From a virus (taxonomy: Duplodnaviria; Caudoviricetes), in the IMG/VR virus record IMGVR_UViG_3300005686_000008: a DNA stretch of 64,000 nucleotides; one strand, given 5' to 3'. The notes below the pieces were generated by a model. It saw only the letters and a program-made list of their open reading frames with translations, did no database searches and was not told the DNA's origin. Made by a program: the position numbers and the translations under genes. Positions 1 through 41,177 of this stretch are shown here, in pieces (position 1 is the stretch's first letter; every line of letters begins with the position of its first letter).

Positions 1-25
1 AACTTCCTGAGAGGAAAGAACAAGC

Positions 26-508
26 ATGGAAAGCAACGTCACAACTTATTCTCGGGAAAGTTTCATCAAGTTGCTGAGCGACCCCAGCAAGGTTGACGCT
101 TTCATGGCTTTGTTCAACTCTGCCGCCCTCATCGTTGGCGACTTCGATGACTATGGCGAGGTTTTGCAGAGCAACGAAGCAGGCATGTACGACGAAACAA
201 CCAACATTGAAAAGCTGCGCGGAGCTATCAACCTCATTAGCCCCGGCATGGTTCCCGAGGGGGATTATCTTCCCCATTTGACAGAGCAGCAGCAGAAGCG
301 GCTCGAAGAGGTTGCGGCTGAGGTTGTTGCGATTGGCGATGGTGTGGAAACCAAGCCTATAGAAGATGCTGCTTCTGAGGTTGAAACCATGACCCCGAGG
401 GAACGGCTCGAAGCCACGGGCTATTGGGCAAGTACCGAGGACCGTCAAAGGAGCTTGCGGAAGCGGTTAGGATTCGACCCTGAAAATGGGGAAGAGTTCA
501 AGGACTAA
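26..508 (+). CDS. hypothetical protein (putative early gene)
   Basis: 160-aa ORF with upstream GAGG; its stop is the TAA of motif A. Confidence 0.8.
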   Translation: MESNVTTYSRESFIKLLSDPSKVDAFMALFNSAALIVGDFDDYGEVLQSNEAGMYDETTNIEKLRGAINLISPGMVPEGDYLPHLTEQQQKRLEEVAAEVVAIGDGVETKPIEDAASEVETMTPRERLEATGYWASTEDRQRSLRKRLGFDPENGEEFKD

Positions 509-545
509 ACTTTCTTCTCATCTTTTATAAGCAAGGAGATATTCA

Positions 546-887
546 ATGTCCGAACTCATCAAGCCCCATGTCCTGACCGAAGCCGAAGCTTTGAAGCGCA
601 TCAGAGATGCTATTGATAGCATGGACCTTGATGACCTTGCTTGTCTCGTCAGCGACGTTTGTGACACTGATGGACCTGTCGTTGTTGTCCATGACGGCTG
701 CGAGGCCACGACCGCCGAGGAACTCGGAGCGGACGACACAATTCCCGTTTCTGCTGTCTACGAGAACGGCGAGAATGTCGGCGATTTGGCCGAGGATGGA
801 ACCATCTACGGCGATGATGCGGAGGATGACGCGGACGAGGCCAAGAATCAGTCCGACAAGTCTTTCGGCGGGATGGATGACGACTAA
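546..887 (+). CDS. acidic hypothetical protein
   Basis: AAGGAG RBS; very D/E-rich; stop lies in motif A. Confidence 0.8.
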   Translation: MSELIKPHVLTEAEALKRIRDAIDSMDLDDLACLVSDVCDTDGPVVVVHDGCEATTAEELGADDTIPVSAVYENGENVGDLAEDGTIYGDDAEDDADEAKNQSDKSFGGMDDD

Positions 888-911
888 ACTTTCCTCGCGC
901 AAAGGAATCGC

Positions 912-1262
912 ATGAAGGCTACAAGGTTCAAACTCGAAGGGAAAAGGCATGAGGCCCTTCGGTTCATCAATCGGCAAGAGGGTTTCGAGCTTCTCATGTC
1001 CTGCGAGTGCGTTTTGGTTAATGGGGATTTGCTTGAAGATGGGTTTTATCCCTTCAAGAACGACAGTCAGACTCTTGTTGTTGCGATTCCCGAGCTTGGG
1101 AATAGCAGCAGCAAGGAAAACGAGAACATCCACGAATGGGTGGACAGTTTCGTAGATGGTTTGATGGAAGCGGTCGGGAAGATGAAGGCGGACGAGTTTG
1201 AGGCTGCTTCTTTGGAGGGCATGAAGGGTTACAGTAGGATTGCTCGCTTCCATTGGTATTGA
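912..1262 (+). CDS. hypothetical protein
   Basis: AAGGA RBS just after motif A at 882. Confidence 0.75.
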   Translation: MKATRFKLEGKRHEALRFINRQEGFELLMSCECVLVNGDLLEDGFYPFKNDSQTLVVAIPELGNSSSKENENIHEWVDSFVDGLMEAVGKMKADEFEAASLEGMKGYSRIARFHWY

Positions 1263-1457
1263 CGAACTAGCGCGATCGGATGTCGGACCCTAGACTCCCG
1301 TGCGGCGATACGGCACGAACAAAATGGGGTAGGTGTTGCGGTTGCAGTTGCTTCCCCTTTCAGCCTTAAATGCGGAATCGGCAACGGGACAGAGGAGGGT
1401 TTGCAAGCCCTTCTCTGTTCGTTTAAGACTAAACTTCTTGCGCAAAGGAGTGTTGAT

Positions 1458-1778
1458 GTGCCAAAGTCAAATTCCCAAAAGAGGAAACTACCTCCGCTGA
1501 AAGAGGGAGACCTGGTCATCACTGTTTCTCTTGAGTTCCCTAACCATGAACGAGGCGGAGTTCCTCGCAAGTTTGATTTGGTTTGCGACCCCGAGACAAT
1601 GACCGTTCAGTTGGAAGAGGACTTGGTTGAACTTACTGAACCGTTCGACCCCAACGAAGACCCCGACAGTTCTGCTTTGGAGGTTTGCAAAGCCATCGAA
1701 GACGAAGGCATCTCCATGAAGGGGATGCGCCACCATATTGCTGCACTGCTTACGGCGGTCATTGAAGCGACTCCGTAA
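1458..1778 (+). CDS. hypothetical protein
   Basis: Probable GTG start at 1458 after AAGGAG; flanked by motif A at 1427 and 1779. Confidence 0.65.
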   Translation: MPKSNSQKRKLPPLKEGDLVITVSLEFPNHERGGVPRKFDLVCDPETMTVQLEEDLVELTEPFDPNEDPDSSALEVCKAIEDEGISMKGMRHHIAALLTAVIEATP

Positions 1779-1808
1779 GACTAAACTTCCAGAGAAAGGA
1801 ACACTGTT

Positions 1809-2150
1809 ATGGCAAAGAAGAAAGCAAAGAAGAAAGCGAAGAAGGTTGTTGCTGACCCCAAGTTCCAGGTTTGGGCGTACTACAGCCATCCGCAAGGGAT
1901 TGACTGGGACAAGGATGACGAGATCCGTAAGGCCGCCGGCAAGGAGGACTTCGGTTCTGGTTTCGGTATGCACGGCGGGCTGCGCGACCTTTCTTTCTTC
2001 GCGCAAAACATGGCTCATGCGCTGCGCATGAAGGACCGCATCCTCAAGCTTCGCTGCGTCGTTCGCGTCGAGGTATCCGAGGACGAGAAGGGCGGCAATA
2101 CGGTCTTTACCAAGAAGAACAAGAAGGGGAAGTGGCAAAGCTACGGTTGA
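1809..2150 (+). CDS. hypothetical protein, Lys-rich N-terminus
   Basis: AAGGA RBS after motif A; starts MAKKKAKKKAKK. Confidence 0.8.
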   Translation: MAKKKAKKKAKKVVADPKFQVWAYYSHPQGIDWDKDDEIRKAAGKEDFGSGFGMHGGLRDLSFFAQNMAHALRMKDRILKLRCVVRVEVSEDEKGGNTVFTKKNKKGKWQSYG

Positions 2151-2354
2151 ATGGGTAAAGTAGGGGAAACCCTCTCTGGCTAAACTTTGACCATTGAGCC
2201 AAAGGATGTTCAGAACTCAAGAACCACTCTAAGGAGCGAGTCAAGTGAGCAAGAAGACCCCTATCAAAGGCAAAAAAGTTGGGAAGACGGTGACTTTCCA
2301 AGCCAAGCCGAAGGTTGACCCCTTGACTAAACTTCCTGCGCAAAAGAAGAAGAT

Positions 2355-2496
2355 GCCGACATAGTTTATCCTGGTTAGAACAGCAATGTTTGACTCAAGT
2401 AGGAGCTAGCGCAGTTCTGAAAAGTAGTCAAACCGAGCCTTGGCGCAAAGGCGGGAAAATTGAAAGAAGGAGGTTCGATCCCTCCTGTCGGCACCA
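2355..2496 (+). ncRNA. tRNA-like RNA with a 71-nt structured insert replacing the anticodon loop
   Basis: Acceptor stem GCCGACA/TGTCGGC followed by A-CCA; D-arm GTTT...GAAC; T-arm GGAGG-TTCGATC-CCTCC; anticodon stem CAAT/ATTG encloses 2388-2458; followed by a terminator. Confidence 0.8.
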
Positions 2497-2504
2497 CCGA
2501 TAAC

Positions 2505-2530
2505 AACCCCCGAAATGGGGGTTTTCTTTT
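2505..2530 (+). terminator. intrinsic terminator
   Basis: AACCCCC-GAAAT-GGGGGTT followed by a T-tract. Confidence 0.8.
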
Positions 2531-2826
2531 GCGATCATCCGTCTAATCGTTATGAGTGAAGAAGATCTACACAACCGCCAAGATCACCTCGTAGATCACC
2601 TCGCACATTTGGCACACAATGACCCACATTCTTAAGCTAACAAGCCACGCGATGTCCGGAGCTGCCACGCGATGTCCGGATGCCCAGGGCAAAAAGCCCA
2701 GGACTCGGAGGAGCCTCTCTTCAGTTCTGAGGCGGAGCCGCTCCGAACTGAGAGTTCCGTTAGGATTTTGGTATCTACAGTACGAGACTCCTCGCTGGCT
2801 AAACTTTCTTTGGAGCAGTTTTGGGT

Positions 2827-3075
2827 ATGAGCGTACAAAGACATTGTTCAATCTACCTCGCCAAGAACGGCAAATGGTACATGGAGCTTGGCGACCAAGA
2901 ATATGACCGCCAAGACGATTCAACGACGTATGGACCCTTTGCCTCAAAGGAGAGGGTCTATGATGAGCTGAGGTTCCATGCGAACCCCGGCGGAAGTTTC
3001 CAAGACGACAGCGGAACTCGTGAAGTTCCTACCGTTTCTCCCAATGGCAGGCCAATCCAAAAACCAAGAGGATAA
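2827..3075 (+). CDS. hypothetical protein
   Basis: ORF downstream of motif A at 2797 with GGAG RBS. Confidence 0.7.
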   Translation: MSVQRHCSIYLAKNGKWYMELGDQEYDRQDDSTTYGPFASKERVYDELRFHANPGGSFQDDSGTREVPTVSPNGRPIQKPRG

Positions 3076-3076
3076 C

Positions 3077-3292
3077 ATGAGCAACAAAAACTGGAACAAC
3101 AGTCACATTCAGTTCGCCCGCCTCATCGCTGAGATTGAAGCGAACGGAGGCTTTACGAACAGTTTGATGGACGACCTTTGCTCCTCGATGGACTTGGAGA
3201 GGATGGACGTTTGCGGCCTCATCAATCGGGCGCAGAGCGAGTGGGACGAAATCAAGGCTCAGATTCCCAAGACGATTCCCAAGAAGAAGTGA
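3077..3292 (+). CDS. hypothetical protein
   Basis: GAGGA RBS; ATG immediately after the previous stop. Confidence 0.7.
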   Translation: MSNKNWNNSHIQFARLIAEIEANGGFTNSLMDDLCSSMDLERMDVCGLINRAQSEWDEIKAQIPKTIPKKK

Positions 3293-3442
3293 ACCGTCCT
3301 CGAAAGATGACGACTAAACTTATCTGATGGCTCTACTACAGAGCAAGGTTTACTTGTCGTTATTGTTCCAAAGGAGGTGCCTTATGTAACCCTAACTATG
3401 GTTTGTTTGCAGGACTAAACTTCCTGAGAAAGATTTAGAGAC

Positions 3443-3709
3443 ATGGAAAACTTCTTGTTTGGTTTCGAGCTTGAGACAGTTAGCCCCTTCGATAAGAGGC
3501 ACTTGTCTTCTGTTCTTAATCAAAGAGGAATCAAGACCGTCGTTTCCGAGGATCTTCATTACAGAGAAAAGAACGCTTACCTGGTTGATGGGTCATACTC
3601 GCTTGTCGATGATGGCAGCATCAAGCCTGATGGGTTAAAGTTTGGTGTTGAGTTTAGGAGTTGCATCTTTGCGCTCCACTGTCTCGACATGCACAAGCCT
3701 CTGGTTTGA
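3443..3709 (+). pseudogene. truncated amidoligase-like N-terminal fragment
   Basis: FGFELET and SLVDDGSI...GVEFRS resemble the phage amidoligase N-terminus, but the ORF ends at 88 aa. Confidence 0.5.
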
Positions 3710-3890
3710 TCGCCACAACCAAGAGACCGGCGTTCTTATGACGAAGGAAACGAAAAACCCTTGGGCTGAGATGGACAAGGGGCGCGAAAAGAAAAGCTAC
3801 GCCTTCCTGGCGGAACGGTTGGACGGGTACTTGAAGGCCCCGTGACTAAACTTCCGTCGCAGAACAAGAAAGCAACAAGGAGTATCAACC

Positions 3891-4127
3891 ATGATTGATT
3901 TCATCGCTCACAACTGGCATTGGTTCGGTTTCACGACCTTCGGAATTCTCATTCTCTGCGTCATCAACTTCATCGTAGCGGCTCGCTACTCGATGAGAAT
4001 GGACCGCCAGGTCTTCGTCTACTCCATCGGTGTCCACCTGTTCCTCGGCCTTCTGTTCCTTCTCTCGGCGATTCCTTTCTCCATCGGCGCAATCATCGCC
4101 ATCATCAAGTACGTTCAGGCTCAGTAA
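3891..4127 (+). CDS. small membrane protein (2 TM)
   Basis: AAGGAG RBS; two hydrophobic segments. Confidence 0.75.
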   Translation: MIDFIAHNWHWFGFTTFGILILCVINFIVAARYSMRMDRQVFVYSIGVHLFLGLLFLLSAIPFSIGAIIAIIKYVQAQ

Positions 4128-4167
4128 CACTGCGCAGGACTAAACTTTCAGCGCAAAGAGAACTGAC

Positions 4168-4374
4168 ATGAGCAAGGGCATACGAATCAAGAGCGAGAAC
4201 TTCTCGGCAATCTCTGATGCCCTTGAAAAGTCAGGAATTGATTGGTCGGTTTGGAACGCAGAGGCCATGATGGACCCTAACTACAGCGGTCCCATCGACC
4301 TTGAGTGTCACGACAATCATCGTTTCGGAGAATTTTCTCGCATCGTCCGTAGTGTCGAAAAAAGGAGTCAGTAA
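4168..4374 (+). CDS. hypothetical protein
   Basis: Follows motif A at 4138; stop overlaps the next start. Confidence 0.7.
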   Translation: MSKGIRIKSENFSAISDALEKSGIDWSVWNAEAMMDPNYSGPIDLECHDNHRFGEFSRIVRSVEKRSQ

Positions 4375-4637
4375 TGGACCGCATTTTCGCAGGTATCGCC
4401 ATTGGCATCGCCGGTTTCTTCGCTATCATCGCCCTCGCCTTCTGTATCGCTCTCCTCGCTGCCATCCCGCTGTATTTCCTCTGGAACGCCTTCGCTCCGA
4501 CGTACTTCCCGTTCCTCCCCGCGCCCTGGCTCGCCATCCCCTTCTGGCACGTTGTCTGTCTGACATGGCTGCTCAGTATCGTCCGCGGCATCATCATGCC
4601 GAGCGCAGTCGCAAACGCAACGGCCAAGAACGACTAA
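4374..4637 (+). CDS. small membrane protein
   Basis: AAGGAG RBS; hydrophobic; ends in a motif A variant. Confidence 0.75.
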   Translation: MDRIFAGIAIGIAGFFAIIALAFCIALLAAIPLYFLWNAFAPTYFPFLPAPWLAIPFWHVVCLTWLLSIVRGIIMPSAVANATAKND

Positions 4638-4722
4638 ACCTCGTCGTCATGTCCTTGAGCGAGGCCCTGAGCAATCGGGGCCTTTCTCTTGTGACTAAAC
4701 TTTTCGCGCAAAGGAAAGTTGT

Positions 4723-5019
4723 ATGGCAACTGAACTGAAAATCGACAGAGAGAAAGCCAAGTCCGTTTACAGCGGCAAGGATGGCGCATGCTGCTGCGGT
4801 TGCAGCGGAACCCATTACTACGCCTCCAAGCACCGCGAAGAGGCCGGGAAGAGTCGTGGTTACAATGTTGAGGACAAGGAAATCAACGACAAGCAAGTAA
4901 CTCGCATCATCAACAAGATCGAGAAACTCGCAGCGGCAGGCGTCCAGATCGATACTGTTCCCGATGTCTACTTCTCCGCTGTTGAGGGCAAGCGGCTTTA
5001 CATTGTTTATTACAACTAA
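4723..5019 (+). CDS. hypothetical protein with CCCGC motif
   Basis: VYSGKDGACCCGCSG; motif A on both sides. Confidence 0.8.
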   Translation: MATELKIDREKAKSVYSGKDGACCCGCSGTHYYASKHREEAGKSRGYNVEDKEINDKQVTRIINKIEKLAAAGVQIDTVPDVYFSAVEGKRLYIVYYN

Positions 5020-5043
5020 ACTTTCCAATCAGAAGGGAAAGAC

Positions 5044-5442
5044 ATGAAGAACGTAAGATTCCTTACAAGGGATGAGATTCTCGAAACCGATGGCGGACGA
5101 GAAGGAACTCTGAGCGAGAACTACGCCACCGTTCGCAAGGCGGTCGAGAAACTCCCCGGATTTGACCAGGGCTTCTTCATCAATCCCAAGAGCGGCGGCG
5201 AAGATGCCGACTTCCCCGATGATGATGAGAAGGTCGATGTTACCTTCGGTCTGAAAGATGAGGAAACGGGCGAGGTTCTCATTGTTTGGAACTATAAGAG
5301 CGGTCCCGCTTACAACCCCAGAGATAACCTGACACTGGATGACATTTCCGAGTTCTCCATCGGATATGGAGGCGATAAAAAGAAACCGTCCACTGCGCTG
5401 CTCTCCGCTCTGATGGAGGCTTGCGATATCGCCAAGCATTGA
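5044..5442 (+). CDS. hypothetical protein
   Basis: ORF between motif A copies at 5014 and 5444. Confidence 0.75.
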   Translation: MKNVRFLTRDEILETDGGREGTLSENYATVRKAVEKLPGFDQGFFINPKSGGEDADFPDDDEKVDVTFGLKDEETGEVLIVWNYKSGPAYNPRDNLTLDDISEFSIGYGGDKKKPSTALLSALMEACDIAKH

Positions 5443-5473
5443 GGACTAAACTTCCTGCGCCCGTTTGTAAGGT

Positions 5474-5683
5474 ATGAACGTCAACGATACCATCCACCGC
5501 CGCTGCCAAGATTGCGGAGAAACCTTTGAGGTTATCGACCCCGATTGCAAGGCGGAGGTTCGCTGCATTTCTTGTCAGGTGCAGTTCCGTATCACCGGCA
5601 AGACGGCTCTTGAGCGGTACGCCGAGGCTCTCGCCGAATCAATGAGCCAAGCCCTCCCCGCAAAGGAGAAGGTGTCATGCTGA
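5474..5683 (+). CDS. small zinc-ribbon protein
   Basis: CQDC...CISC. Confidence 0.7.
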   Translation: MNVNDTIHRRCQDCGETFEVIDPDCKAEVRCISCQVQFRITGKTALERYAEALAESMSQALPAKEKVSC

Positions 5684-6114
5684 TTTCAGCCATCGAAGTT
5701 CAAGAGGCAAGGCAACGGCTCATCGCCAAGTACGGACAAGCCTATGGCCTACGGCGCGGCTGGTTGCCTCCAGAAGAAGCCGAGAAGCTGAAGGTCAAAC
5801 TGAAGGTCACTCGCAAGGAGGGCGTTCTGGGGCAGTTCTGTCAGCTCTGGCAAGGCAACGTGTTGGTGGTCGAGTCTTACATCTTCCCGACCCCAAGAGG
5901 AGAGTTCAAGAACGTAAGGGAGTTCATCGAGGCGAAGAAGAAGGAGTGGGAGATTGTCAACCTTCCCACCGAGAACGACCCTCGGTATTACGTTCGCTTG
6001 CTCGCTGTTTATCAGTCAATAGGAACGATGTCGATGGGTTGTGTTGTCGAGGGAGGCAAGAGCGTCGATTGCTACACCGTTGACGATTTGATTGCGGTTG
6101 GCTTTGCCGACTAA
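5677..6114 (+). CDS. hypothetical protein
   Basis: AAGG RBS; stop lies in motif A. Confidence 0.75.
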   Translation: MLISAIEVQEARQRLIAKYGQAYGLRRGWLPPEEAEKLKVKLKVTRKEGVLGQFCQLWQGNVLVVESYIFPTPRGEFKNVREFIEAKKKEWEIVNLPTENDPRYYVRLLAVYQSIGTMSMGCVVEGGKSVDCYTVDDLIAVGFAD

Positions 6115-6138
6115 ACTTCCTGCGCAAGGAAAGTAGCT

Positions 6139-6618
6139 ATGAACAATAGCAAACACCGCCAGACTCTCAGCAAGGCAGCTCTCATCGGTCGGCTCAACGG
6201 CATCATCGCCCGCATGGACCGTAACCGCGATGCTTACTTGTGTTCCCACAAGAAGACAAGGGACGCTGACACTGGAAAGCTCCCCGCCGAACTGCTCGCC
6301 ACTGATTTCGCAGCGGCCCAGGCTGAGCTTGAGGCGTTGCACCGCGAGGTCAACACTGATATGGTCGAGGGGTCAACTCTCGAAGGGCAGTACGATAAGA
6401 GCCTTGTGGAGACAACCATCGCGACGGTCTTGGGCAAGGTTCAGCAGCAGTTTGGGCATCAGCCGAACATCCTCGCTACCCTTCAGATGTTCGCGATGCT
6501 CCTTCAGTCCGAACTGTGCCTCAACGCTCATTTCCTCTTTCTCAAGACGGACGCCAATGTGGAGGACCGCATCAACCATCCGAACCTCTACGGTCTTGAC
6601 GGAAACCCCAAGCGTTGA
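6139..6618 (+). CDS. hypothetical protein
   Basis: AAGGA RBS; motif A on both sides. Confidence 0.75.
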   Translation: MNNSKHRQTLSKAALIGRLNGIIARMDRNRDAYLCSHKKTRDADTGKLPAELLATDFAAAQAELEALHREVNTDMVEGSTLEGQYDKSLVETTIATVLGKVQQQFGHQPNILATLQMFAMLLQSELCLNAHFLFLKTDANVEDRINHPNLYGLDGNPKR

Positions 6619-6649
6619 CTAAACTTTCAGCGCAAGGTAGAATGGTATG

Positions 6650-6840
6650 AGGTAATGCGGGTCTAACCCCGCTAGAGGATGCGTCCTCTATAGTATAAGC
6701 CGAAAGGCCAGAGAAATACCGCCTCTAGGGATTGGAACCCCTCTAAGAAATCCCCTCGTCGGTAGGTAGCCGAACAGCCGAACCCGAGCGGCAATCGGGA
6801 GTGTATCGCGCCGACCCTAAACAAGTCGGCTTATTTCTTT
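6650..6840 (+). ncRNA. candidate multi-hairpin structured RNA
   Basis: At least 6 consecutive hairpins and a 9-bp long-range pair (6695-6703 with 6826-6834); no credible ORF; follows motif A at 6617. Confidence 0.5.
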
Positions 6841-7156
6841 AATCCCTCTTGTTTCCGTTTGCGGAAACTCGCCGAGTTTAGGAAACTCACCCATAACCAT
6901 TACCAGACGCCAACATAATCGTTATGAGTGAAATAGTGTTCCAACGGGTTTCAGTGTCCGGATCCCGGATCCGGGTGACCAGTCTCAGGTCAACCGGGTG
7001 TCCGGGTGTCGTAGCCAGAAATTTCTGCGCAGAAACAAACTCCGAACAACCCCAACAGACTAAACTTTCCAATAATCCAAACAGACCAAAGCCTCAACAA
7101 TCCCAACAGACTAAACTTTCCTCGCAATTTTGCAGAGTACCCAATAGGAGAAACCC

Positions 7157-7912
7157 ATGAAACTCATCAGCCGCAAAGAACTCATCGAACGCCTTTACAA
7201 TCAGACGACTCAGACCATCGTTTCGATGGTTTGCGTTACCGAGCCTGACATGAGGGCGAAGGCAATCATCGAAGCCGTCGATATCGCCGTCCCCCAACCG
7301 AACCCCTACCGCATCGGCAAGGGCAAGGCAGCGGTTTCGACCATCAGCAAGGTCTTAAAGGTCAACGGCAAGATTAACGACCGCTACGAGCGCGTCGTTA
7401 CCAACAAGGCCAAGCGCATGATTATCGCCGAGCGCGAGGCCGCGAACCTTGCTCCGCTCTCGCCCGAGCAACTCGATGCAGCAGCGGCGGCGGTCCCCGA
7501 CTTTGGGGAATCTTGGCATACGCCGATTCTCGATGCCGAGGGCAAGCCGACTTGTCTCAGCGTCAACCGCAAGACGCCCGAGAACGGCAAGGTTTATATT
7601 CGGTTCATCTTCAAGGCGAAGGGCGAAGCCGAATACGTCAACAACGACAACGGCGCAACCGAACCGAGCGAGAACGTCTACCCATTCCTCTCTCCCTCAT
7701 CCGACTACAGCAATCAGAATCTCGCCGAGGGCGATGAAGTCCGTTTCGTCGTCTATGACGTTGCCAATATCGCCGAAATCGCGCTTGGCGGCGAACGGCT
7801 CCGCATCCTCGATACCCTCGCCGAACAGTCCGAGGGCATGAGGAATAAGGTTTGGGCAATCGCCGAGGAATACTTGGAGGGCGAACGGAGCATGAGCAAG
7901 GTCGGCAACTAA
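7157..7912 (+). CDS. hypothetical protein
   Basis: 251 aa; AGGAG RBS. Confidence 0.85.
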   Translation: MKLISRKELIERLYNQTTQTIVSMVCVTEPDMRAKAIIEAVDIAVPQPNPYRIGKGKAAVSTISKVLKVNGKINDRYERVVTNKAKRMIIAEREAANLAPLSPEQLDAAAAAVPDFGESWHTPILDAEGKPTCLSVNRKTPENGKVYIRFIFKAKGEAEYVNNDNGATEPSENVYPFLSPSSDYSNQNLAEGDEVRFVVYDVANIAEIALGGERLRILDTLAEQSEGMRNKVWAIAEEYLEGERSMSKVGN

Positions 7913-8100
7913 CGCCGGCTAAACTTTCCCCAACCCTCAACCCCAATCGTTTGTCTCCATTGGGGACCGAACGCCAGCCTTACAAGGTTGGCGTTTGGTC
8001 ATTGCAAACACTGAATCATTATGAGTGAAATAGAACAGCCGAGCAAACATTAGCCGACTAAACTTTCAGCGCAGAATTGAGAAGTAACGAAAGGAACCCC

Positions 8101-8514
8101 ATGAACAGCCGCAACCATAACGATGACAGCCTTAACGGTCATGGCTTTTTCGAGCATGACATTCCTTTTGGACAGCCCGAACTCCAGCCCGACAAGGCTA
8201 CGGCGGTCATCGTCAAGGACAGGCCGAAGGACGAAACGAAGGGGCAGCGTCCGCATGTCGTTCTCGTTTGGAATGACCAAGAACATTCGGAATTGTTCGT
8301 CATCGGCGTTCTCATGGAAGTCTGCAAGATGAATTTGCAGCAAGCCATCCAAACGACCATGAAGATTCATGCCGAAGGCAAGGCGGCGGTCATCGGCGGA
8401 TTGTTGGAGTATTGCGAGTTAAAGAGGGACCAGATTGCAACCTTCCGCGATGCCCTTGTCATCTCGATGGGAGGCCCCAACGTCCCCCTCAACGTTACGG
8501 TCGCGGAGGCATGA
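8101..8514 (+). CDS. clpS: ClpS-like ATP-dependent Clp protease adaptor
   Basis: PHVVLVWNDQEHSELFVIGVL...TMKIHAEGKAAV...CELKRDQI matches the ClpS core. Confidence 0.8.
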   Translation: MNSRNHNDDSLNGHGFFEHDIPFGQPELQPDKATAVIVKDRPKDETKGQRPHVVLVWNDQEHSELFVIGVLMEVCKMNLQQAIQTTMKIHAEGKAAVIGGLLEYCELKRDQIATFRDALVISMGGPNVPLNVTVAEA

Positions 8515-8676
8515 GGCGCAGCGGACTAAACTTCCGCTAGAAGGTACTTTCATGGGCGGGGTATTGAAGCGGCTCTCGGCGAGGCCGCTCTACCCCTTTA
8601 AGCCAACCGAATCGTTATGAGTGTAACGCCATCGCCGACCCCTCCAAACTAAACTTCCGTCAGCAAAGTTATAATC

Positions 8677-8892
8677 ATGGCAGCAGAACCAATCAACACG
8701 AAGCAGCCAGGCGATTGCGGATACGTCTTTTTCTTCCGCGGCAAGGAAATCGCCCTCTACGCTCCGAGCTTGGCAGCGGCAAAGGACAAGGCCGTGACGC
8801 ATTTCAAGGCCCCCAAGAGCCAACGGCATATGGTTCATGGAGGTATCGCAGAGGACAAGGACGGCAAGGAAATCGTCCATACAGCAGACTAA
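8677..8892 (+). CDS. hypothetical protein
   Basis: Between motif A copies; stop lies in the motif. Confidence 0.7.
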   Translation: MAAEPINTKQPGDCGYVFFFRGKEIALYAPSLAAAKDKAVTHFKAPKSQRHMVHGGIAEDKDGKEIVHTAD

Positions 8893-9002
8893 ACTTCTAA
8901 CTTTGTAATTCTCCGCGCATGGTTGTTTGTCTCGCCGACTAAACTTTCAGCGCAGAATTGCAGAGAGTTAGAACAGCCCAAACCCAATGAAAGGACAGAC
9001 AA

Positions 9003-9518
9003 ATGGCAAAGCTCGCTCTCCTCAACCTCGCCGCCTTCGAACTCGCCCGCCGTCGCATCGCCGAACGGAACATTACCCTTCCGAACGATGAACAGATCAT
9101 GGCTGGCAACTACAGCGTTCGCGTTTTCAACAGCCCCCGGCACAGCGATATCTACGTCATGCAACTTCTCTCCACCTTGTTCCGTACCCAACCGAACAAG
9201 GCGGCGGAAATCGCCCTCAAGATCCACGACAGCGGCGATGAGGGAGTTACAATCTTCACCGGCAGCCGCGATAACTGCCGCAACCTCATGCGGGCGTTGG
9301 CGGCTTGGGGCGGCGATGCCGCCGCAAACCTCGCCCTCCGCATCGACAATGACAAGGGACTGTACGCCGAAATGACCGACAACCGCAGCGGCGAAATCGT
9401 ACAGCGCAGCGGCGATGAGGATGAAGGGGCCGACGATGCCGCTCCCCAACTCGCCCCCGCCGTCGCTCCGCCCGTTCGCCCGCTCGATGCGGTTTTCGCT
9501 CGGCTTCTCGGCAACTAA
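9003..9518 (+). CDS. divergent ClpS-like protein
   Basis: YSVRVFNSPRHSDIYVMQLLSTLF...AAEIALKIHDSG...TIFTG resembles the ClpS fold. Confidence 0.6.
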   Translation: MAKLALLNLAAFELARRRIAERNITLPNDEQIMAGNYSVRVFNSPRHSDIYVMQLLSTLFRTQPNKAAEIALKIHDSGDEGVTIFTGSRDNCRNLMRALAAWGGDAAANLALRIDNDKGLYAEMTDNRSGEIVQRSGDEDEGADDAAPQLAPAVAPPVRPLDAVFARLLGN

Positions 9519-9551
9519 ACTTTCCTCGCCAAAGGAAAGTAGTAAAGGACA

Positions 9552-9639
9552 GGCAAGGGACTCTGCCTCCGAGACTCGTTCTCGGAGGGGCGTTCAGAGG
9601 ACAGCGGACGGGAAGTAACGCGCCCGAGCCGCACTTGCC
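9552..9639 (+). ncRNA. candidate structured RNA (multi-stem junction)
   Basis: Closing stem GGCAAG/CTTGCC; inner stems CTCTG/CAGAG, CCTCCGAG/CTCGGAGG and GCGG/CCGC. Confidence 0.4.
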
Positions 9640-9710
9640 ATTTAAGCCAATCTAATCGTTATGAGTGAAAGCCGCATCCGAACTAAACTTCGCGCAAGAA
9701 AGTTATAAGC

Positions 9711-9920
9711 ATGGGACTCGGAAAGAAAATCGACGGCAAGTATCAACCCATCAGTAATTACGAAGGCTCATGGGCCGACGTAATGAAGAAGGCAAGAGAA
9801 AGAACTCGCCGCGAAGCCGAGAAGGACAAGAGGCCCTCATCCTTGCTCGCCTACGAAGGAGTCCATACCCTCTCCAACGGCGTCAAGGTTGAGTTTACAA
9901 ATACCAACCGCATCGACTAA
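9711..9920 (+). CDS. hypothetical protein
   Basis: Between motif A copies; stop lies in the motif. Confidence 0.7.
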   Translation: MGLGKKIDGKYQPISNYEGSWADVMKKARERTRREAEKDKRPSSLLAYEGVHTLSNGVKVEFTNTNRID

Positions 9921-9944
9921 ACTTCTAGGGGAAGGATTAGAAAC

Positions 9945-10262
9945 ATGGTAGACTACAATGCTCCATTGTTTCAGCATCCCCAAGAGACTTGGGACAAGGC
10001 GAAATGCGAGAAACTCGCCAAGTATCGCCATGTCGATGCTTTCGGAACCAAGCAAAGCCGCAAGGGGTTTCTAGGCTCGGGCGCAGCCATCCCCGCAAGG
10101 TTCGGCATAACTCGTTACAACGGAGGATGCGAGCGTAATGGCGAATGGTGGCAAGGCGAGAATTTTCCCTTCCCCATCCTTGCCGAAGGGTTTGAGATTG
10201 TTTACGTTCTGACTTGGGGATGGTACATTCAACGTAAGGCAGGCAGCCATGAACGTCAATGA
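9945..10262 (+). CDS. hypothetical protein
   Basis: AAGGA RBS after motif A. Confidence 0.7.
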   Translation: MVDYNAPLFQHPQETWDKAKCEKLAKYRHVDAFGTKQSRKGFLGSGAAIPARFGITRYNGGCERNGEWWQGENFPFPILAEGFEIVYVLTWGWYIQRKAGSHERQ

Positions 10263-10440
10263 TGGAATTTTCTACCTCTACTCCGACGATGAGAAGGGGT
10301 TTTGGAACAACGAGAGCGGCTGGGGTTCGCTCGAAACGGCGCAAGAGTATTTGGAGGAGGACTTGCATGGGTACATCCCTAAAGGTTCTCGGTTCGTTTC
10401 CGCAAGCGAAGCCGAAACCCTTTGCGATGACCCAAACTAA
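10249..10440 (+). CDS. hypothetical protein
   Basis: Overlaps the previous gene; stop lies in motif A. Confidence 0.65.
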   Translation: MNVNDGIFYLYSDDEKGFWNNESGWGSLETAQEYLEEDLHGYIPKGSRFVSASEAETLCDDPN

Positions 10441-10481
10441 ACTTTCGCGCAGGTACTTCTAGGTAGAAAGGACTCTATCCC

Positions 10482-10721
10482 ATGAAGGTTGAAATCCGTC
10501 ATCTCAAGACCCTCAGCCAGCCCAACGGCGAACTCATCGAAATCGTTGAAGTTAACGCCCAAACCATGAACGCCGAACAAATCCAAACAAAGGTTGGTTC
10601 GGCCCTCATCAGCAAGGGCATCGAACTGTTCGGCTCCGAATTCCAATCGGTCGGCAACAACTCCATCTTCGGCGGTTACGTTCGTAACAAGGCCAACGGC
10701 GAATGTATCATCGCCGTTTGA
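10482..10721 (+). CDS. hypothetical protein
   Basis: AAGGA RBS. Confidence 0.7.
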   Translation: MKVEIRHLKTLSQPNGELIEIVEVNAQTMNAEQIQTKVGSALISKGIELFGSEFQSVGNNSIFGGYVRNKANGECIIAV

Positions 10722-10858
10722 GGAGAAACTAAACTTCCGTCGCGGAAGTTAAGAGTATGAAATACAACTCTACTTTCTGCGGCTCGCAAACTCCCCCAAC
10801 TTGGCGTTGGGGGAATCTTTTTGCGCCAGGCTAAACTTCCTGAAAAGAAATGAGAAGC

Positions 10859-11071
10859 ATGGCAACTCAAACAGTCAAATCTCGTTCAAGCAAGCCCCGT
10901 TCAAGCAAGCGGACCCATCTCAACATCAATGTTTCTCTCGAAGTCGATGATGTTGTCAGAGTCGCCGGCTGGCATAAAGCCAACCACATGCTCAACCGCG
11001 TTCTCGCCTTCGCTGCAAACAACAAGGGACGCATCAGCCTCAAGGTAACAAAGCCCACGACGAAGGGCTAA
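10859..11071 (+). CDS. basic hypothetical protein
   Basis: After motif A at 10829; start at 10850 or 10859. Confidence 0.6.
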   Translation: MATQTVKSRSSKPRSSKRTHLNINVSLEVDDVVRVAGWHKANHMLNRVLAFAANNKGRISLKVTKPTTKG

Positions 11072-11180
11072 CAACGGAGCATGGTACGGGTAAAGGGCGA
11101 GCAGCCTAACCCAGCCCGCAAGGGTATGGGTTCCGTACCGATTTAATGAGGACTAAACTTTCCTTCCAACAATCAAGAGC

Positions 11181-11372
11181 ATGTTGAACTGGAACATTGA
11201 CAAGATGAGAGGGGCAGATAAGAACAGCGTTGAGGTTCAGCTCTTCAATGCAGAGAACGCTCTCTCAAACTGGCGCGAGGATGTAGCGAAAGGGTATTGC
11301 CGTTATGATGCTGGCGAGGAGAGGAAACTCAAGGCGAAGATTAAGGAACTGAGGACTAAACTTCCCGGCTAG
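11181..11372 (+). CDS. hypothetical protein
   Basis: After motif A at 11151; last gene of the array. Confidence 0.65.
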   Translation: MLNWNIDKMRGADKNSVEVQLFNAENALSNWREDVAKGYCRYDAGEERKLKAKIKELRTKLPG

Positions 11373-11569
11373 AACCCCCTCCGTTGGGGCGCAGTGGAAG
11401 GGATGCTCTCTCACTCATAATGATTAACATCACAGAGGCACCCCATACCCCTCGCCCGCCCCTTCAGGAAAAGTAAGATATCTATATTTCAAAGGAGTAC
11501 CCTAGAGTATACTCAGTTACAGAAAGAAGGTATCCTCAAAATGTCGATATTATTTTAGGAGGATACCGC

Positions 11570-12004
11570 ATGCCATATAAAAGTGTAGAAAAAAGAACTG
11601 AATGGAAAAGAGAATGGGCAAAGAAAAATAAAGACAAAATACAAGAATATGCCAAGCGATATTATGATAAGAAAAAGAACAGCCTACCAAAGTCTGTAAG
11701 AATAAAGAAGACAAAAGAAGAGATAAAAGAAACAGATACGGTTGCAAGAAAAAGAAGAATACAAAGAAATAGAGAATATATCAATTCTATAAAACAAGGA
11801 AACAAGTGTTTGAAATGCGGAGAATCTCATATTTCATGTTTAGTTTTTCATCATAGAGATAGAAGAGAAAAAGAATATACGATTAGCGATATGGATAACA
11901 TGAGTCTTGAAACAATAAAGAAAGAAATAGAGAAATGCGATATGCTTTGTCATAATTGTCATGCTAAACTACATTATGAAGAAAGAGGGTACGCCGTCAC
12001 TTAA
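11570..12004 (+). CDS. HNH endonuclease (homing-type)
   Basis: CLKCGE...LVFHH...EIEKCDMLCHNCHAKLH; AGGAGG RBS. Confidence 0.85.
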   Translation: MPYKSVEKRTEWKREWAKKNKDKIQEYAKRYYDKKKNSLPKSVRIKKTKEEIKETDTVARKRRIQRNREYINSIKQGNKCLKCGESHISCLVFHHRDRREKEYTISDMDNMSLETIKKEIEKCDMLCHNCHAKLHYEERGYAVT

Positions 12005-12541
12005 AATTCGCAATATGGGGGATACCTTATCTCGTTCACAGCAAAGAGGTATTTTTTTGATATTGACGAATTGGTAATAGAAGACTTGCAGGAGAATGAA
12101 ATGAAAAGGATAGAAAGTAAAAACTACGCAAAATCAAAGACGGCTCAAGTAAATCAAGAAGATATAAGAAGCCGTGTTTTTGATTTTGCTAAAAAGATGT
12201 TTCATCTTGCTAAAAACGCAAGAGTGATTATTAGCATGAACGAGGTAGGAAACTTATTCGTAGGCGAATATGGATGGACAGATGAAGGCAAGAGGATACA
12301 CGATATGTCAGTAAGGGTTCTCTCCAATCCAAGGTCTTCTATTCAAGAACTTTTTGAAATCATAGAAAGCATTATAAATCTAGCAGGCGATAAAGAAGTT
12401 GCGGACGGAACCCCTCCCGGAAGAGGCCAACCTCGTGTTATTGGTCCAGAGTTGATTACTGAATATAGAAACCTAAAAGCAGAAGCCAATTTCTAAAATT
12501 AGGTATACGTCACTTAAAATTCGCGCACAGAGGGATACCTT
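11995..12541 (+). repeat. 34-bp imperfect direct repeat CGTCACTTAAAATTCGC-N7-GGGATACCTT flanking one gene
   Basis: Copies at 11995-12028 and 12508-12541. Confidence 0.8.
12101..12496 (+). CDS. hypothetical protein (N-terminal KTAQ)
   Basis: GGAGA RBS before ATG at 12101. Confidence 0.75.
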   Translation: MKRIESKNYAKSKTAQVNQEDIRSRVFDFAKKMFHLAKNARVIISMNEVGNLFVGEYGWTDEGKRIHDMSVRVLSNPRSSIQELFEIIESIINLAGDKEVADGTPPGRGQPRVIGPELITEYRNLKAEANF

Positions 12542-12624
12542 GCTTGTTTATTCCTGACCCTAATCAGAAGCCAATATAATAATACAAAGGACTAAACAAT
12601 TATATTGTGGAATCCCACAATATA

Positions 12625-13170
12625 ATGAAAGGCTTTACTCTCATCGAGTTGCTTGTTGTTATAGCGATAGTTGCGATACTCTTATCTCTTGCTATGACGG
12701 CTCTTTCAAAATCTCGTGATACAGCAAGGGGAGCCATCTGTAAAAACAATCTACACCAACTCGCAACTTCTATTCAAATGTACTCGTTTCAATATAATGA
12801 TTTACCAGACGCTTGCCTTATCGAGGGCATGATTTCAGAACATTCTCTTTCAATAAAGCTAGAAAACTTTCTAGACGCTCCAAAACCAGAAATCGGCAAA
12901 AGAGTAAACCCTTGGTGTTGTCCGTTTGACGAGCGATATTATAAACTCTGCGGAGGCAGTTATCATTATGCTCCTGCATCATTACGAAATACCTATACTC
13001 TTCCAGTTTTGAAGATTTACGAGAGTATTCCAAGGATGGCTCTTCTTACGGACATTTCTCCAAGAAAAGATAGCAGTTATCATCTTGCGAGGATTGACGG
13101 TTCGGTTATAGATGCGAATAGGACGACGCCTTTTCCTGATACAAGGTGGTTGTTTGATTATCGAAGGTAA
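12625..13170 (+). CDS. prepilin-type N-terminal cleavage/methylation domain protein (DUF1559-like)
   Basis: MKGFTLIELLVVIAIVAILL...SRDTARGAICKNNLHQL. Confidence 0.9.
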   Translation: MKGFTLIELLVVIAIVAILLSLAMTALSKSRDTARGAICKNNLHQLATSIQMYSFQYNDLPDACLIEGMISEHSLSIKLENFLDAPKPEIGKRVNPWCCPFDERYYKLCGGSYHYAPASLRNTYTLPVLKIYESIPRMALLTDISPRKDSSYHLARIDGSVIDANRTTPFPDTRWLFDYRR

Positions 13171-38666: not shown

Positions 38667-39437
38667 ATGAATATCCTTGAAAATAACGCTGACTATCTTA
38701 TCAACAGTCTTGATCAGGAAGACTACCTGTTTTATGTCTACGATAGAGCCATAAATGCAGGAGCAAAGCTGTCTGATTTAGTTGAAACTAGATCTAGTTT
38801 TAATAGACTAATGGCTATGTATCAAGAACCAGTTTCTTGTTCCCCTTTGATTCCAAGAAACTACCACAACTTTAGTCATATATCTCAGGGGGTTAGGGAT
38901 ATTGTTGATGTAGAAGTTTTGTGTGAATGCACAGAAGACGCAATCAATAATGTCCTTCTTGCATGGTTTTACCATGATTGCGTGTATGTCTTAAATCCAG
39001 CGACCGGAACGAACGAAGAAGATAGTGCAAAGTTTGCCCTTAATGAACTTCTACAAATGGGCTTTTCTGGTGAAAGGGCTGGAAGAATCTACGATCTTGT
39101 TTTATGGACAAAACACAAAGTCAATCCTCCAGAAAACGATTATGAAGCTAATCTGATTGTAGATATTGACCTTCAAAGAATCTCCGCCTGCCCTGTTGAA
39201 GCATTTTTTATGTCTACTGAAACAGTAAGGGAGGAATTTGGATTCTTGAGTGATAAAGAGTGGATTGAAGGTAGAATCAAGTTCTGGAAATCTTTTTTGA
39301 AGTTGAAGGGAAACAGAGTCTTTAGAACATCTCATTTTGAGCATCTAAATAAGATTGCTGTTGACAATATAAACAAAGAGATTTACAGTCTTGAAAAAAG
39401 CAATTTCAGAAAAGGAGATAGTAGTGATGAAAAATAG
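38667..39437 (+). CDS. HD-domain metal-dependent phosphohydrolase
   Basis: RNYHNFSHI; AWFYHDCVY; NEEDSA; VDIDL. Confidence 0.8.
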   Translation: MNILENNADYLINSLDQEDYLFYVYDRAINAGAKLSDLVETRSSFNRLMAMYQEPVSCSPLIPRNYHNFSHISQGVRDIVDVEVLCECTEDAINNVLLAWFYHDCVYVLNPATGTNEEDSAKFALNELLQMGFSGERAGRIYDLVLWTKHKVNPPENDYEANLIVDIDLQRISACPVEAFFMSTETVREEFGFLSDKEWIEGRIKFWKSFLKLKGNRVFRTSHFEHLNKIAVDNINKEIYSLEKSNFRKGDSSDEK

Positions 39438-39648
39438 TGATACTGAACTAATGAGAATATTAAATGATATACATCAGTCGGTTATGAAGAAAGACGACGA
39501 TGAAGAATTAGATGACGATCTAGATGATGAAGATGACGATCTAGATGACTGGGACGATGATGACGACGATTTTATGGACGATGATGATGACGACGATTAC
39601 GACGATGATGATGATTTAGAAGATGACGATGATGACGAAGACTTTTAA
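39427..39648 (+). CDS. Asp-rich highly acidic small protein
   Basis: AAGGAG RBS; C-terminal ~50 aa almost all D/E. Confidence 0.7.
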   Translation: MKNSDTELMRILNDIHQSVMKKDDDEELDDDLDDEDDDLDDWDDDDDDFMDDDDDDDYDDDDDLEDDDDDEDF

Positions 39649-39652
39649 CTGC

Positions 39653-39683
39653 AAGACCCTGCCAAGGCGGGGTCTTTTCTTTT
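39653..39683 (+). terminator. intrinsic terminator
   Basis: AAGACCCTGCC-AA-GGCGGGGTCTT followed by a T-rich tail. Confidence 0.8.
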
Positions 39684-39727
39684 GGTGAAAGCTGGTCCTG
39701 ATACCACCATTTTGCCGACAACACCTA

Positions 39728-40260
39728 CTAAGCAGTCATTGGGCATCTAGAGTGTCCCAAGACGAACATAAACAAAGGGAATTCAAGACCCTTCTTCTTT
39801 CTTGAATAGGCTCCCGCCTTAGCCTCCGTCTTAGGCATACAGCCCCATAAAGGGCAGTATTCGCAAAGGAATCTAGATTCTGATGCGTTTTCTCCGAAGT
39901 TCAATAGAACTTAGTTGACTGCTTGGCTTTCACCTTTCACCTTGCAGTTAGACGAAAAGGAGACGGTAGACTGATATATAGCTAAGTCTTCCCACCGACT
40001 ATAAAAGACCAACTTAGCATCTCGTACAAGAGGGTCAGCCAAGAGTGCAATTTTACTTAAAGTTACATTTTTGGCTGAAAGGTCGAGCGCAGCGCTAAAT
40101 TGACATAAGCGCTTCCACAATAGATAAAGTTGTGGCTATCTAATATCCAACCTAATAATACAGGAAAGGTTCGAACCGACGTAGGAGGTTCGGACCTCTG
40201 AGCCGATCAGGCTCAGGTAAATAATCAAGCCTACCTGCCCAGACCTGACCCGATGCCTTA
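39728..40260 (+). ncRNA. candidate large structured non-coding RNA (~530 nt)
   Basis: No credible ORF; GCCGACAA box at 39714; long-range pair AAGCAGTCA (39730) / TGACTGCTT (39916); more than 10 hairpins. Confidence 0.5.
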
Positions 40261-40376
40261 CGAAAAGCTACAATTAAATTTTCTAATACCTGAAATTCTT
40301 ATAGAAATTTTTCCAACAAAAAACCACTACAAAGAACGTAGTGGTCTGTTTCTTTAATGAAACAATGAGATAATAC

Positions 40377-41177
40377 TTATCTTTGATTCTTTATTTTCTT
40401 ATGAATTGGACAATCTCCATCTCCATCAGTATCTTTTTCGCAACAACGATCTGATATATCACCATTAATAAGGAATCCAACTCTAATATTTTCCAGTTTC
40501 TCTTTAATATTCGCAGGCTTTGTTGATTTGGCTTCTATTGGAACTTCTCTCCACAACTCAAGACCTTTTATATTACTTCTTAGGTCTTTAATAAATGACT
40601 CAACAACAATACTATCCGTTCCTAAATCTTTTGTAGAAAGAAGATTTTCGAGTTTGTCTATATAGGCAAACTCTTCTATTAAACCAGTTCCTACATACTG
40701 CTGCCAAAACCTAGCAGCCATAGCATGAGGAGCGATTTTCTTCAAAACACTTTTTTCGAAGTAGAAACTCTTCTCATTGAACAAACAGTCGCAAAGCAAC
40801 TTGAACCCAACAAAGACATATGCTTTTTGTATCTCCATCGTTGTACCAACGATTACAGAGTCAAATGGCTTTTTGATTTGCCACTCCTCAAACGCTTGTC
40901 TGAAACACCTGTTGATTTCACTTAGATACTTACCTTCAAGCAAAAACGTCCTATCATTCAAGAGACCTTCAATCTTCTCTGGCACGATAGAGAAGAACGG
41001 AACTTGAACATCTGGTTTGTATAAATTGTTCCATTTTTCTAAGGTTTGCTTACTGTGAGCGTCAAACTTTGACCAGTCAAGCCTATACAATGGAACTTTT
41101 GATGAGTTTGTTGGAAAACAAATCTCTTTTTCAAACACTAACTGCGGAAAATGAACAGGACACCTAACGGTTAACAT
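40377..41177 (-). CDS. hypothetical protein
   Basis: AAGGAG RBS on the minus strand; upstream GTCGATAA. Confidence 0.75.
   Translation of the reverse strand: MLTVRCPVHFPQLVFEKEICFPTNSSKVPLYRLDWSKFDAHSKQTLEKWNNLYKPDVQVPFFSIVPEKIEGLLNDRTFLLEGKYLSEINRCFRQAFEEWQIKKPFDSVIVGTTMEIQKAYVFVGFKLLCDCLFNEKSFYFEKSVLKKIAPHAMAARFWQQYVGTGLIEEFAYIDKLENLLSTKDLGTDSIVVESFIKDLRSNIKGLELWREVPIEAKSTKPANIKEKLENIRVGFLINGDISDRCCEKDTDGDGDCPIHKKIKNQR

Follow-up and report, generated by a model that had tools for sequence, protein, structure and literature searches.

A probable new family of large, pseudoknotted RNAs in a clade of uncultured huge phages

An intergenic element with a conserved fold

The 64,000-nucleotide (nt) stretch of viral DNA analysed here (Duplodnaviria; Caudoviricetes; hereafter the window) belongs to IMG/VR virus record IMGVR_UViG_3300005686_000008, which is 370,652 bp long with a CheckV completeness of ~73% and therefore implies a phage genome of roughly half a megabase. 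Within the window, two convergent genes, at 39427-39648 on the + strand and at 40377-41177 on the - strand, flank the element, in a stretch of ~640 nt that is set apart by terminators on both sides. An original prediction, made from the letters of the window alone, had proposed that this region encodes a large and possibly undescribed non-coding RNA behind a sigma-28-like promoter, had offered a replication origin as the alternative, and had named an Rfam search, a homologue alignment, folding against shuffled controls and GC-skew analysis as checks. Our comparative analysis indicates, with a probability that we put at about 0.9, that the locus is a genuine and conserved gene, present in single copy, whose product is a large RNA with three pseudoknots belonging to a new family. 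The proposal of an undescribed large phage RNA is borne out by homologues in ~11 lineages, by covariation specific to the + strand and by the lack of an Rfam match.

No open frame was found in any genetic code across window positions 39680-40320, the + strand of the element holds no open reading frame (ORF) of at least 60 amino acids (aa), and reading TAG, TGA or TAA as sense opened no frame across it. Moreover, all six frames carry at least three stops in 17 of 17 distinct sequences of the family, which confirms the region as free of ORFs, as had been predicted. The element was also correctly described as richer in G+C than its surroundings (0.42-0.465 versus 0.30-0.39 in the flanks) and as heavily base-paired, since the + strand of 39690-40300 folds at -177.3 kcal/mol compared with -143.9 +/- 5.3 kcal/mol for dinucleotide shuffles (z = -6.26), with a z of -4.0 against such shuffles for the - strand. 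The individual motifs of the prediction were likewise recovered at their positions, with a terminator at 39653-39676, the box GCCGACAA at 39714-39721 and every listed hairpin arm present.

Evidence that this folding is under selection comes from the homologues. RNAalifold, run on 10 and then on 17 sequences, returned helices with compensatory double changes in most pairs. The 280 nt that are best conserved (window 39808-40086) were aligned for 17 sequences with MAFFT, and 57 pairs were placed on this alignment by hand. Standard pairs occupy 93.4% of cells (81.2 +/- 0.7 in shuffles), compensatory changes are present at 38 of the 57 pairs (22.7 +/- 2.2 in shuffles) and the covariation score reaches 0.480 (0.234 in shuffles), with none of 500 shuffles attaining any of five measures. 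The pairing is sensitive to register, falling to 35-47% when the 3' partners are slid by 1-3 columns. Where a cell departs from the commonest pair, it is still paired in 77.7% of cases (shuffle mean 48.6%, maximum 53.3%), and this figure is 75.5% when each lineage is represented by a single sequence. Misregistration of some segments by MAFFT lowers, and does not raise, these pairing figures.

The same alignment distinguishes the strands. Across the consensus structure there are 104 G-U cells versus 18 A-C cells, one G-U pair is found in 16 of the 17 sequences, and pairing is 93.3% when read on the + strand versus 84.2% on the - strand. The excess of G-U pairs and the lower pairing of the - strand identify the + strand as the RNA, and selection for pairing that tolerates G-U favours an RNA element over a DNA element. 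Taken together, comparative analysis shows a consensus fold of about ten conserved helices and three pseudoknots (PK1-PK3) arranged around near-invariant loops and junctions. The features of the locus, from 5' to 3', are as follows.

39653-39676, + strand: intrinsic terminator of the acidic-protein gene, a 10-bp stem followed by a T run; upstream limit of the unit.
39681-39687, + strand: UUUGGUG motif, 27-28 nt before the CCGAYR box; it belongs to a promoter or forms the very 5' end of the RNA.
39714-39721, + strand: the GCCGACAA box (family consensus nCCGAYRn), a putative -10-like element 8 nt before UAAGCAG.
39729-39760, + strand: UAAGCAG (39729-39735), the putative 5' end, with hairpin H1 (39739-39745 with 39753-39760).
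39775-39807, + strand: PK1, H-type; stem 1 AAGGG/CCCUU (39775-79 with 39789-93) and loop AUUCAAGA (39781-88) with UCUUGAAU (39800-07).
39808-39836, + strand: hairpin P2 (AGGCU 39808-12 with AGCCU 39821-25) and PK2 (P2 loop GCCU 39816-19 with AGGC 39833-36).
39842-39887, + strand: hairpins H3 (39842-55, loop AUAAAG) and H4 (39862-87, long and variable).
39891-39963, + strand: P5 (UCUCC 39891-95 with GGAGA 39959-63) around H6 (39898-39911) and P7 (39914-26 with 39940-53).
39964-40018, + strand: core, the most conserved part; PK3 (CGGU 39964-67 with ACCG 39994-97 in the P8 loop), the GACUG strand (39968-80) and P8 (39981-90 with 40005-18).
40021-40084, + strand: hairpin H9 (40021-32), the long helix P10 (40035-47 with 40066-78) and the conserved CUGAAAGG junction.
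40085-40250, + strand: variable 3' domain of ~170 nt; GCGC module (40085-40114) and hairpins at 40115-35, 40167-97 and 40198-40216.
40258-40312, + strand: conserved 3' tail, consensus CAAUGAAAAGGUA ... AACCUG ... UAUAGRAAWUUUU.
40321-40355, both strands: bidirectional terminator hairpin (40321-40347), terminator-like either way, which closes the unit and also ends the convergent gene 40377-41177.

In the 5' part of the element, comparative data identify several of the hairpins first noticed in the window with conserved elements of the family. TTGGGCA/TGTCCCAA is the conserved helix H1, at whose site other lineages carry a hairpin of other sequence, as judged by eye from the alignments and left uncounted, and ATTCAAGA/TCTTGAAT is stem 2 of PK1. 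This pseudoknot comprises a hairpin of 3-5 bp whose loop finds its partner directly 5' of the next helix, a topology that is the same in every lineage with differing sequences (AUUCGAGA/UCUCGAAU, UAAUCAU/AUGAUUA, UAUCAG/CUGAUA). Compensatory changes in PK1 distinguish close relatives (L003 versus L033, L012 versus L037), and in 9 of 14 lineages no more than 5 of 200 shuffles attain its score, with weak support in the other five. P2 and PK2 (helices 1 and 2) are 98.8% and 90.4% paired, compensatory changes occur in six of six PK2 pairs, and the linker CCUCYGU between P2 and the downstream strand of PK2 is conserved. GCCC/GGGC corresponds to H3, where CG becomes UA in 6 sequences, and AGTTC/GAACT to H6. 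Together with H4 and H9, H6 folds independently in nearly every lineage from unrelated sequence (H4 in 13 of the 14 lineages folded, weakly in L037; H9 in every one).

Further downstream, the inner pairs of P5 covary (CC/GG, UG/CA, CG/CG, UC/GA, CU/AG), and 11 of the 13 pairs of P7 show compensatory changes alongside an invariant G-U. Two pairings of the original prediction give way to these and neighbouring helices. AAGCAGTCA and TGACTGCTT are complementary in the window, but TGACTGCTT forms the 5' strand of P7, and the proposed pairing has good counterparts in L012, L005 and L013 and none in L022, L035, L036, L040 and others; similarly, the AGTCT of AGACT/AGTCT lies in P8, which covaries, and GACUG stays invariant when P8 changes. 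The pairing CAGCCAAGA/TTTTGGCTG, on the other hand, survives as P10, with compensatory changes in 9 of 13 pairs.

From P7 to P8 the mean column identity is 81%, in sequences that are otherwise ~50% identical, and the very conserved core measures ~110 nt. PK3 is 98.5% paired, with counts of CG:15 AU:1 UA:1 and UG:8 CG:4 UA:3 AU:1 for its pairs; its first C is changed to U and to A in two lineages, in which the partner G becomes A and U, respectively. A helix 'P3' suggested by RNAalifold (CYG with CGG of AGACGG) showed no compensatory change and is broken in L035, and it was dropped because PK3 (CGGU with RCCG in the P8 loop) accounts for both variants. The conserved stretch also contains extended segments without pairing, namely GACUGAAUGAGAG and the P8 loop of 26 nt, and the near-invariant loops and junctions of the element are GACUGAAUGAGAG, UCUUAACGCCGACCUYAAAAGAYCAA, GUAGACGAAA, CUGAAAGG and CAAUGAAAAGGUA. 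These segments are candidate sites of tertiary contact, binding or activity, as near-invariance of loops amid ~50% identity is what would be expected from tertiary contacts or from a binding or active site. The P7 loop is near-invariant as well (CUUUC...UUUCA at 39927-39 in the window, CUUUG..CCC..AUUUCA in most lineages), and its UUUCA has two potential partners, UGAAA in the 3' tail and GGUGAAA in the upstream motif, all of which are invariant.

The 3' domain aligns poorly between lineages, and its hairpins, taken from the window's own predicted fold, are lineage-specific. The AGCGCT hairpin, CCACAA/TTGTGG with its possible TAGATA/TATCTA pseudoknot, and the AGGTTCGAACC and CTGAGCC hairpins of the original prediction are the window's version of these lineage-specific structures, and the GGTTCGAACC motif at 40168-77 also sits in one of them. 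The GCGC module directly follows P10 and in most lineages holds the palindrome GCGC three or four times (such as UGCGCAGCGCAUGGCGCA). Alternative hairpins in it would present GCGC, which is self-complementary, in a loop, and the module may serve in dimerisation or protein binding. A candidate helix 'P11' that would close the 3' domain (AGGGn with nCCCU) performed no better than shuffles. The UAUAGRAAWUU sequence of the 3' tail is not enriched genome-wide in the phage.

Distribution, upstream signal and gene neighbourhood

The window and 17 further instances bring the family to 18 members, two of which share one contig, distributed over ~11 lineages whose mutual identity over the element is only 45-55%. 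All copies lie in huge-phage contigs at the same site, with an acidic-protein gene upstream and a peptide deformylase gene downstream. They were reached by three routes. The AAA ATPase encoded four genes upstream led to four related huge-phage contigs, in which BLAST then located the conserved core of the element. The core pattern AGACGG..GACUG..CCGAC...AAAAGA gave two more IMG/VR records and three true metagenome matches, the other 4 of the 7 metagenome pattern matches being chance. A profile of the HD-like protein encoded nearby, searched against 5.8 billion proteins and followed by retrieval of the contigs encoding the matches, provided eight more copies. The two immediate neighbour proteins, used as queries in IMG/VR, found no relatives, and no copy was present within the 7.6 kb fetched for L038 and L039, which are more distant and share the HD-like protein. 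Pattern scans of 185,579 prokaryotic species (one genome each) gave 3 and 5 matches, all of them chance (none matched by nhmmer or a covariance model), and none of 50,697 phage records was matched by the region in blastn. In records searched whole (G000, G001, G005) the copy number is exactly one. The carriers are a small clade of uncultured huge phages.

Upstream of the element, the 11 lineages for which the flank was displayed share the layout UUUGGUG-N27/28-nCCGAYRn-N8-UAAGCAG, where the box is GCCGACAA in the window and mostly CCGATA in other lineages, and where its distance to UAAGCAG is 8 nt in most homologues and 15 nt in the L003 group. Strict spacing across non-conserved sequence makes this layout look like a promoter. 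The consensus of sigma-28 (FliA/SigD) promoters is TAAA-N15-GCCGATAA, and nCCGAYRn resembles their -10 element and stands in most homologues 8 nt before the first conserved bases of the RNA, its putative 5' end; the window, however, lacks a TAAA-type -35 at sigma-28 spacing (11-15 nt upstream), and the second conserved upstream element is here UUUGGUG at 27-28 nt. The sigma-28-like promoter is supported only in part, by a conserved CCGAYR box whose spacing to UAAGCAG is kept in most homologues, and is weakened by the missing -35 and by a box that is not enriched in the genome. Some lineages carry AGTTT or AGTTC 10-13 nt upstream of the box, no sigma-70-type promoter was found before the RNA, and UUUGGUG shows no enrichment across the phage genome. 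The upstream terminator hairpin has an equivalent in most homologues, and the downstream terminator is present only in the window.

The gene neighbourhood is conserved in the order AAA ATPase, ~190-aa protein, ~305-aa protein, cytidylyltransferase-like protein, HD-like phosphohydrolase, acidic protein, RNA and peptide deformylase (def), with a 63-aa gene and/or a reverse-strand 266-aa gene inserted before the deformylase gene depending on the lineage; peptide deformylase is always the next, next-but-one or next-but-two gene after the RNA. Always directly 5' of the RNA lies the gene of a small acidic protein (~60-85 aa, in which an almost purely Asp/Glu tail of ~45 residues follows a brief N-terminal portion), seen in the window, L003, L005, L012, L013, L016, L022, L032-L037 and L040. 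Its representative in the window, the + strand gene 39427-39648, encodes 73 aa of which the final ~45 residues are almost all Asp or Glu. The acidic protein falls into no Pfam or PHROG family and could be a nucleic-acid mimic.

The 256-aa neighbour encoded at 38667-39437 (+) matches phage phosphohydrolase family phrog_19425 (E 1.4e-19), the only PHROG match among the neighbours, and its relatives are annotated by JGI as HD-superfamily phosphohydrolases. A PF01467 cytidylyltransferase-like gene precedes the HD-like gene in most relatives and is absent from the window and L032. The gene at 40377-41177 (-) encodes a 266-aa protein without a family match and is inserted in reverse, after the RNA and before peptide deformylase, in just three lineages (window, L012, L037), and the 63-aa gene located after the RNA in many relatives is missing from the window. 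The RNA is kept whichever gene comes next, be it def directly, the 63-aa gene or the reverse-strand gene. At L002 11900-12710 (record G001, IMGVR_UViG_3300033067_001661), the acidic gene, the RNA and the first 105 def codons are inverted relative to the neighbouring genes, and the truncated def overlaps the HD-like gene; this block is either a true inversion or an assembly chimera.

The proposed RNA and its alternatives

In the interpretation that we favour, the RNA would start at or just after its own signal, UUUGGUG-N27/28-CCGAYR-N8-UAAGCAG, and would extend for ~565 nt from UAAGCAG at 39729 to ~40292, or for up to ~630 nt to the terminator. It would build up during infection as a stable and compactly folded molecule, and would act as the RNA core of a ribonucleoprotein or, in the manner of GOLLD and ROOL, as an assembly of RNA alone, neither through base-pairing to a target nor as a DNA signal. 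Action in trans through the fold, as opposed to service as a leader, appears to us the somewhat better supported mode. A more ambitious proposal, which we regard as speculative and rather unlikely, is that the RNA represents a new large phage RNA class whose near-invariant core, with its three pseudoknots, is a catalytic centre or a block for RNA-only assembly, acting on the translation or RNA-processing machinery of host or phage; if true, this would be an RNA peculiar to a lineage of phages of about half a megabase.

Several observations weigh against an independently transcribed RNA of this kind or temper the strength of the case. The 5' and 3' ends of the RNA are deduced from sequence features. 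The CCGAYR box is no recurrent promoter of the phage, with CCGATA in fact under-represented (84 occurrences versus 153 expected), and three relatives have no upstream terminator hairpin, so that transcription of their acidic-protein gene could continue into the element. In most relatives a gene with a Shine-Dalgarno sequence begins on the same strand 40-70 nt past the 3' tail, with no recognisable terminator before it, and the RNA could there be co-transcribed as a leader or be processed out of a longer transcript. MAFFT produced the alignments, and the sequences used to score the structure also served in part to derive it. Finally, comparison of the neighbour proteins with Pfam and PHROGs revealed no RNA-binding family, and no protein partner can be named.

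The arrangement downstream of the 3' tail speaks for a cis-acting leader, in which the RNA would be the extended 5' untranslated region of the operon that follows (the 63-aa protein, peptide deformylase or both) and would control its transcription elongation or its translation, perhaps in response to a ligand or protein. It holds in 16 of the 17 homologues, and peptide deformylase is never more than the next-but-two gene away. In the window, however, the terminators and the convergent gene after the unit make a leader of the downstream gene impossible, and the RNA is nonetheless fully conserved there. The identity of the next gene also varies by lineage, no alternative terminator or antiterminator and no pairing that would sequester the Shine-Dalgarno sequence was seen at the 3' end, and ~570 nt with three pseudoknots is, to our knowledge, well beyond the known regulatory leaders. 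We consider the leader explanation improbable as an account of the element, with a stand-alone RNA the best reading for the window and a leader, or the processed 5' part of a longer transcript, possible for the family. Near-invariant loops held by covarying helices and three pseudoknots form a pattern typical of catalytic RNAs, and the invariant junctions could accordingly be viewed as the active site of a ribozyme, serving self-processing or the processing of the phage's many small RNAs; the lack of a terminator in most relatives, which would require the 3' end to be processed, fits this possibility. Set against it are the absence of any Rfam ribozyme match (RNase P, group I and II introns and small self-cleavers all included), the absence of flanking exons and of an inferable cleavage site, and the fact that protein or RNA-RNA contact sites predict equal conservation. 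We judge a ribozyme to be less probable still than a leader.

The alternative of a DNA replication element, raised by the original prediction, would make the locus an origin or the source of a structured primer RNA engaged in an R-loop with the A+T-rich stretch downstream, comparable to ColE1 RNA II or T4 oriF/oriG. A promoter-like signal, a long structured transcript and an A+T-rich 3' flank are all compatible with such a role, and in the window the sign of the local GC skew flips at this position. This change of sign, however, coincides with the switch to the convergent gene, and across the 370-kb record the cumulative GC skew declines monotonically, with no turning point at the locus. The locus lacks iterons and repeated boxes, its G+C content is higher than that on either side, no replication genes adjoin the element, and the strand-specific G-U pattern together with the covariation of the pseudoknots reflects selection on an RNA fold and not on DNA. 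The missing skew extremum and the missing iterons make an origin unlikely, and a replication element is the explanation to which we attach the least weight.

Comparison with known RNAs

A search of the whole window with Rfam 15 at gathering thresholds, covering families that include GOLLD, ROOL, OLE, raiA, HEARO, RNase P, tmRNA, SRP, 6S and the group I and II introns, returned a single tRNA at 2355-2493 and nothing else. At E up to 10, positions 39500-40500 gave weak chance matches only, mostly to the acidic-codon repeats or the terminator of the upstream gene, and those inside the element (mir-367 and snoR1) are both on the - strand; at E up to 1, six divergent homologues gave no match on the RNA. 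The Rfam check thus leaves both the window region and these homologues without a family, in line with the earlier suspicion of an undescribed RNA. In the full-text literature searched, no such RNA is described beside a phage peptide deformylase or in huge phages.

Two further features of the window lie away from the element. At 2355-2493 (+), the Rfam tRNA model matches end to end (positions 1-71) across 139 nt, which implies an insertion of ~68 nt, perhaps an intron; ARAGORN makes no call there and reports no tRNA or tmRNA in the window. Window 1-13000 contains many ORFs of 100-240 aa that overlap one another across the two strands, such as 543-1253 (-) with 546-887 (+), a layout suggestive of short genes, of RNAs or of atypical coding.

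Few RNAs of bacteria and phages exceed 500 nt and have an elaborate conserved fold; they are the rRNAs, RNase P, group I and II introns, OLE, GOLLD, ROOL, raiA and a handful of others, and each has either proved to be a machine or stays a prominent open problem. A further, unrelated family from huge phages would provide a new test case for the role of such RNAs in infection, and one that can be made in vitro for structure probing, cryo-EM and activity assays although the phage is uncultured. It also bears on the annotation of huge-phage genomes, in which gaps of this kind are currently left blank.

Among bacterial RNAs, the closest parallel is OLE (Rfam RF01071), an RNA of ~610 nt from extremophilic Firmicutes that works with the OapA, OapB and OapC proteins and is membrane-associated. 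The two are alike in size, in highly conserved blocks within a multi-helix fold, and in being encoded by a single-copy gene in a conserved neighbourhood; OLE is bacterial, however, and the present RNA has neither a match to its covariance model nor Oap-like neighbours. Among viral candidates, a catalogue of 10,006 candidate structured RNAs of IMG/VR viruses reports elements of 29-151 nt (Fremin et al. 2023, PMC10690425). That work and ours both draw on IMG/VR intergenic regions and use covariation as evidence, and the present unit of ~570 nt falls outside the size range of the catalogue.

The nearest relatives in kind are ROOL and GOLLD (Rfam RF03087 and RF01998, respectively), large 'ornate' RNAs of phages and prophages. 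No similarity in sequence or by covariance model connects them with the present RNA, which belongs to neither family and is restricted to one huge-phage clade. ROOL and GOLLD are frequently located beside tRNA islands, whereas the neighbours here are protein genes and the nearest Rfam tRNA is 37 kb away. Cryo-EM has revealed both to be RNA-only nanocages (bioRxiv 10.1101/2024.12.08.627333), and such oligomerisation is their defining property. The kinship of the present RNA with them is a loose one that consists in being large, phage-encoded and endowed with a complex covarying fold. Within these bounds the resemblance extends to many features: all three are non-coding, intergenic RNAs of ~0.6-0.8 kb from phages, ROOL and GOLLD, like the present RNA, have no known function or protein partner, and all combine many covarying helices, several pseudoknots and conserved loops with a poorly conserved linker or side domain.

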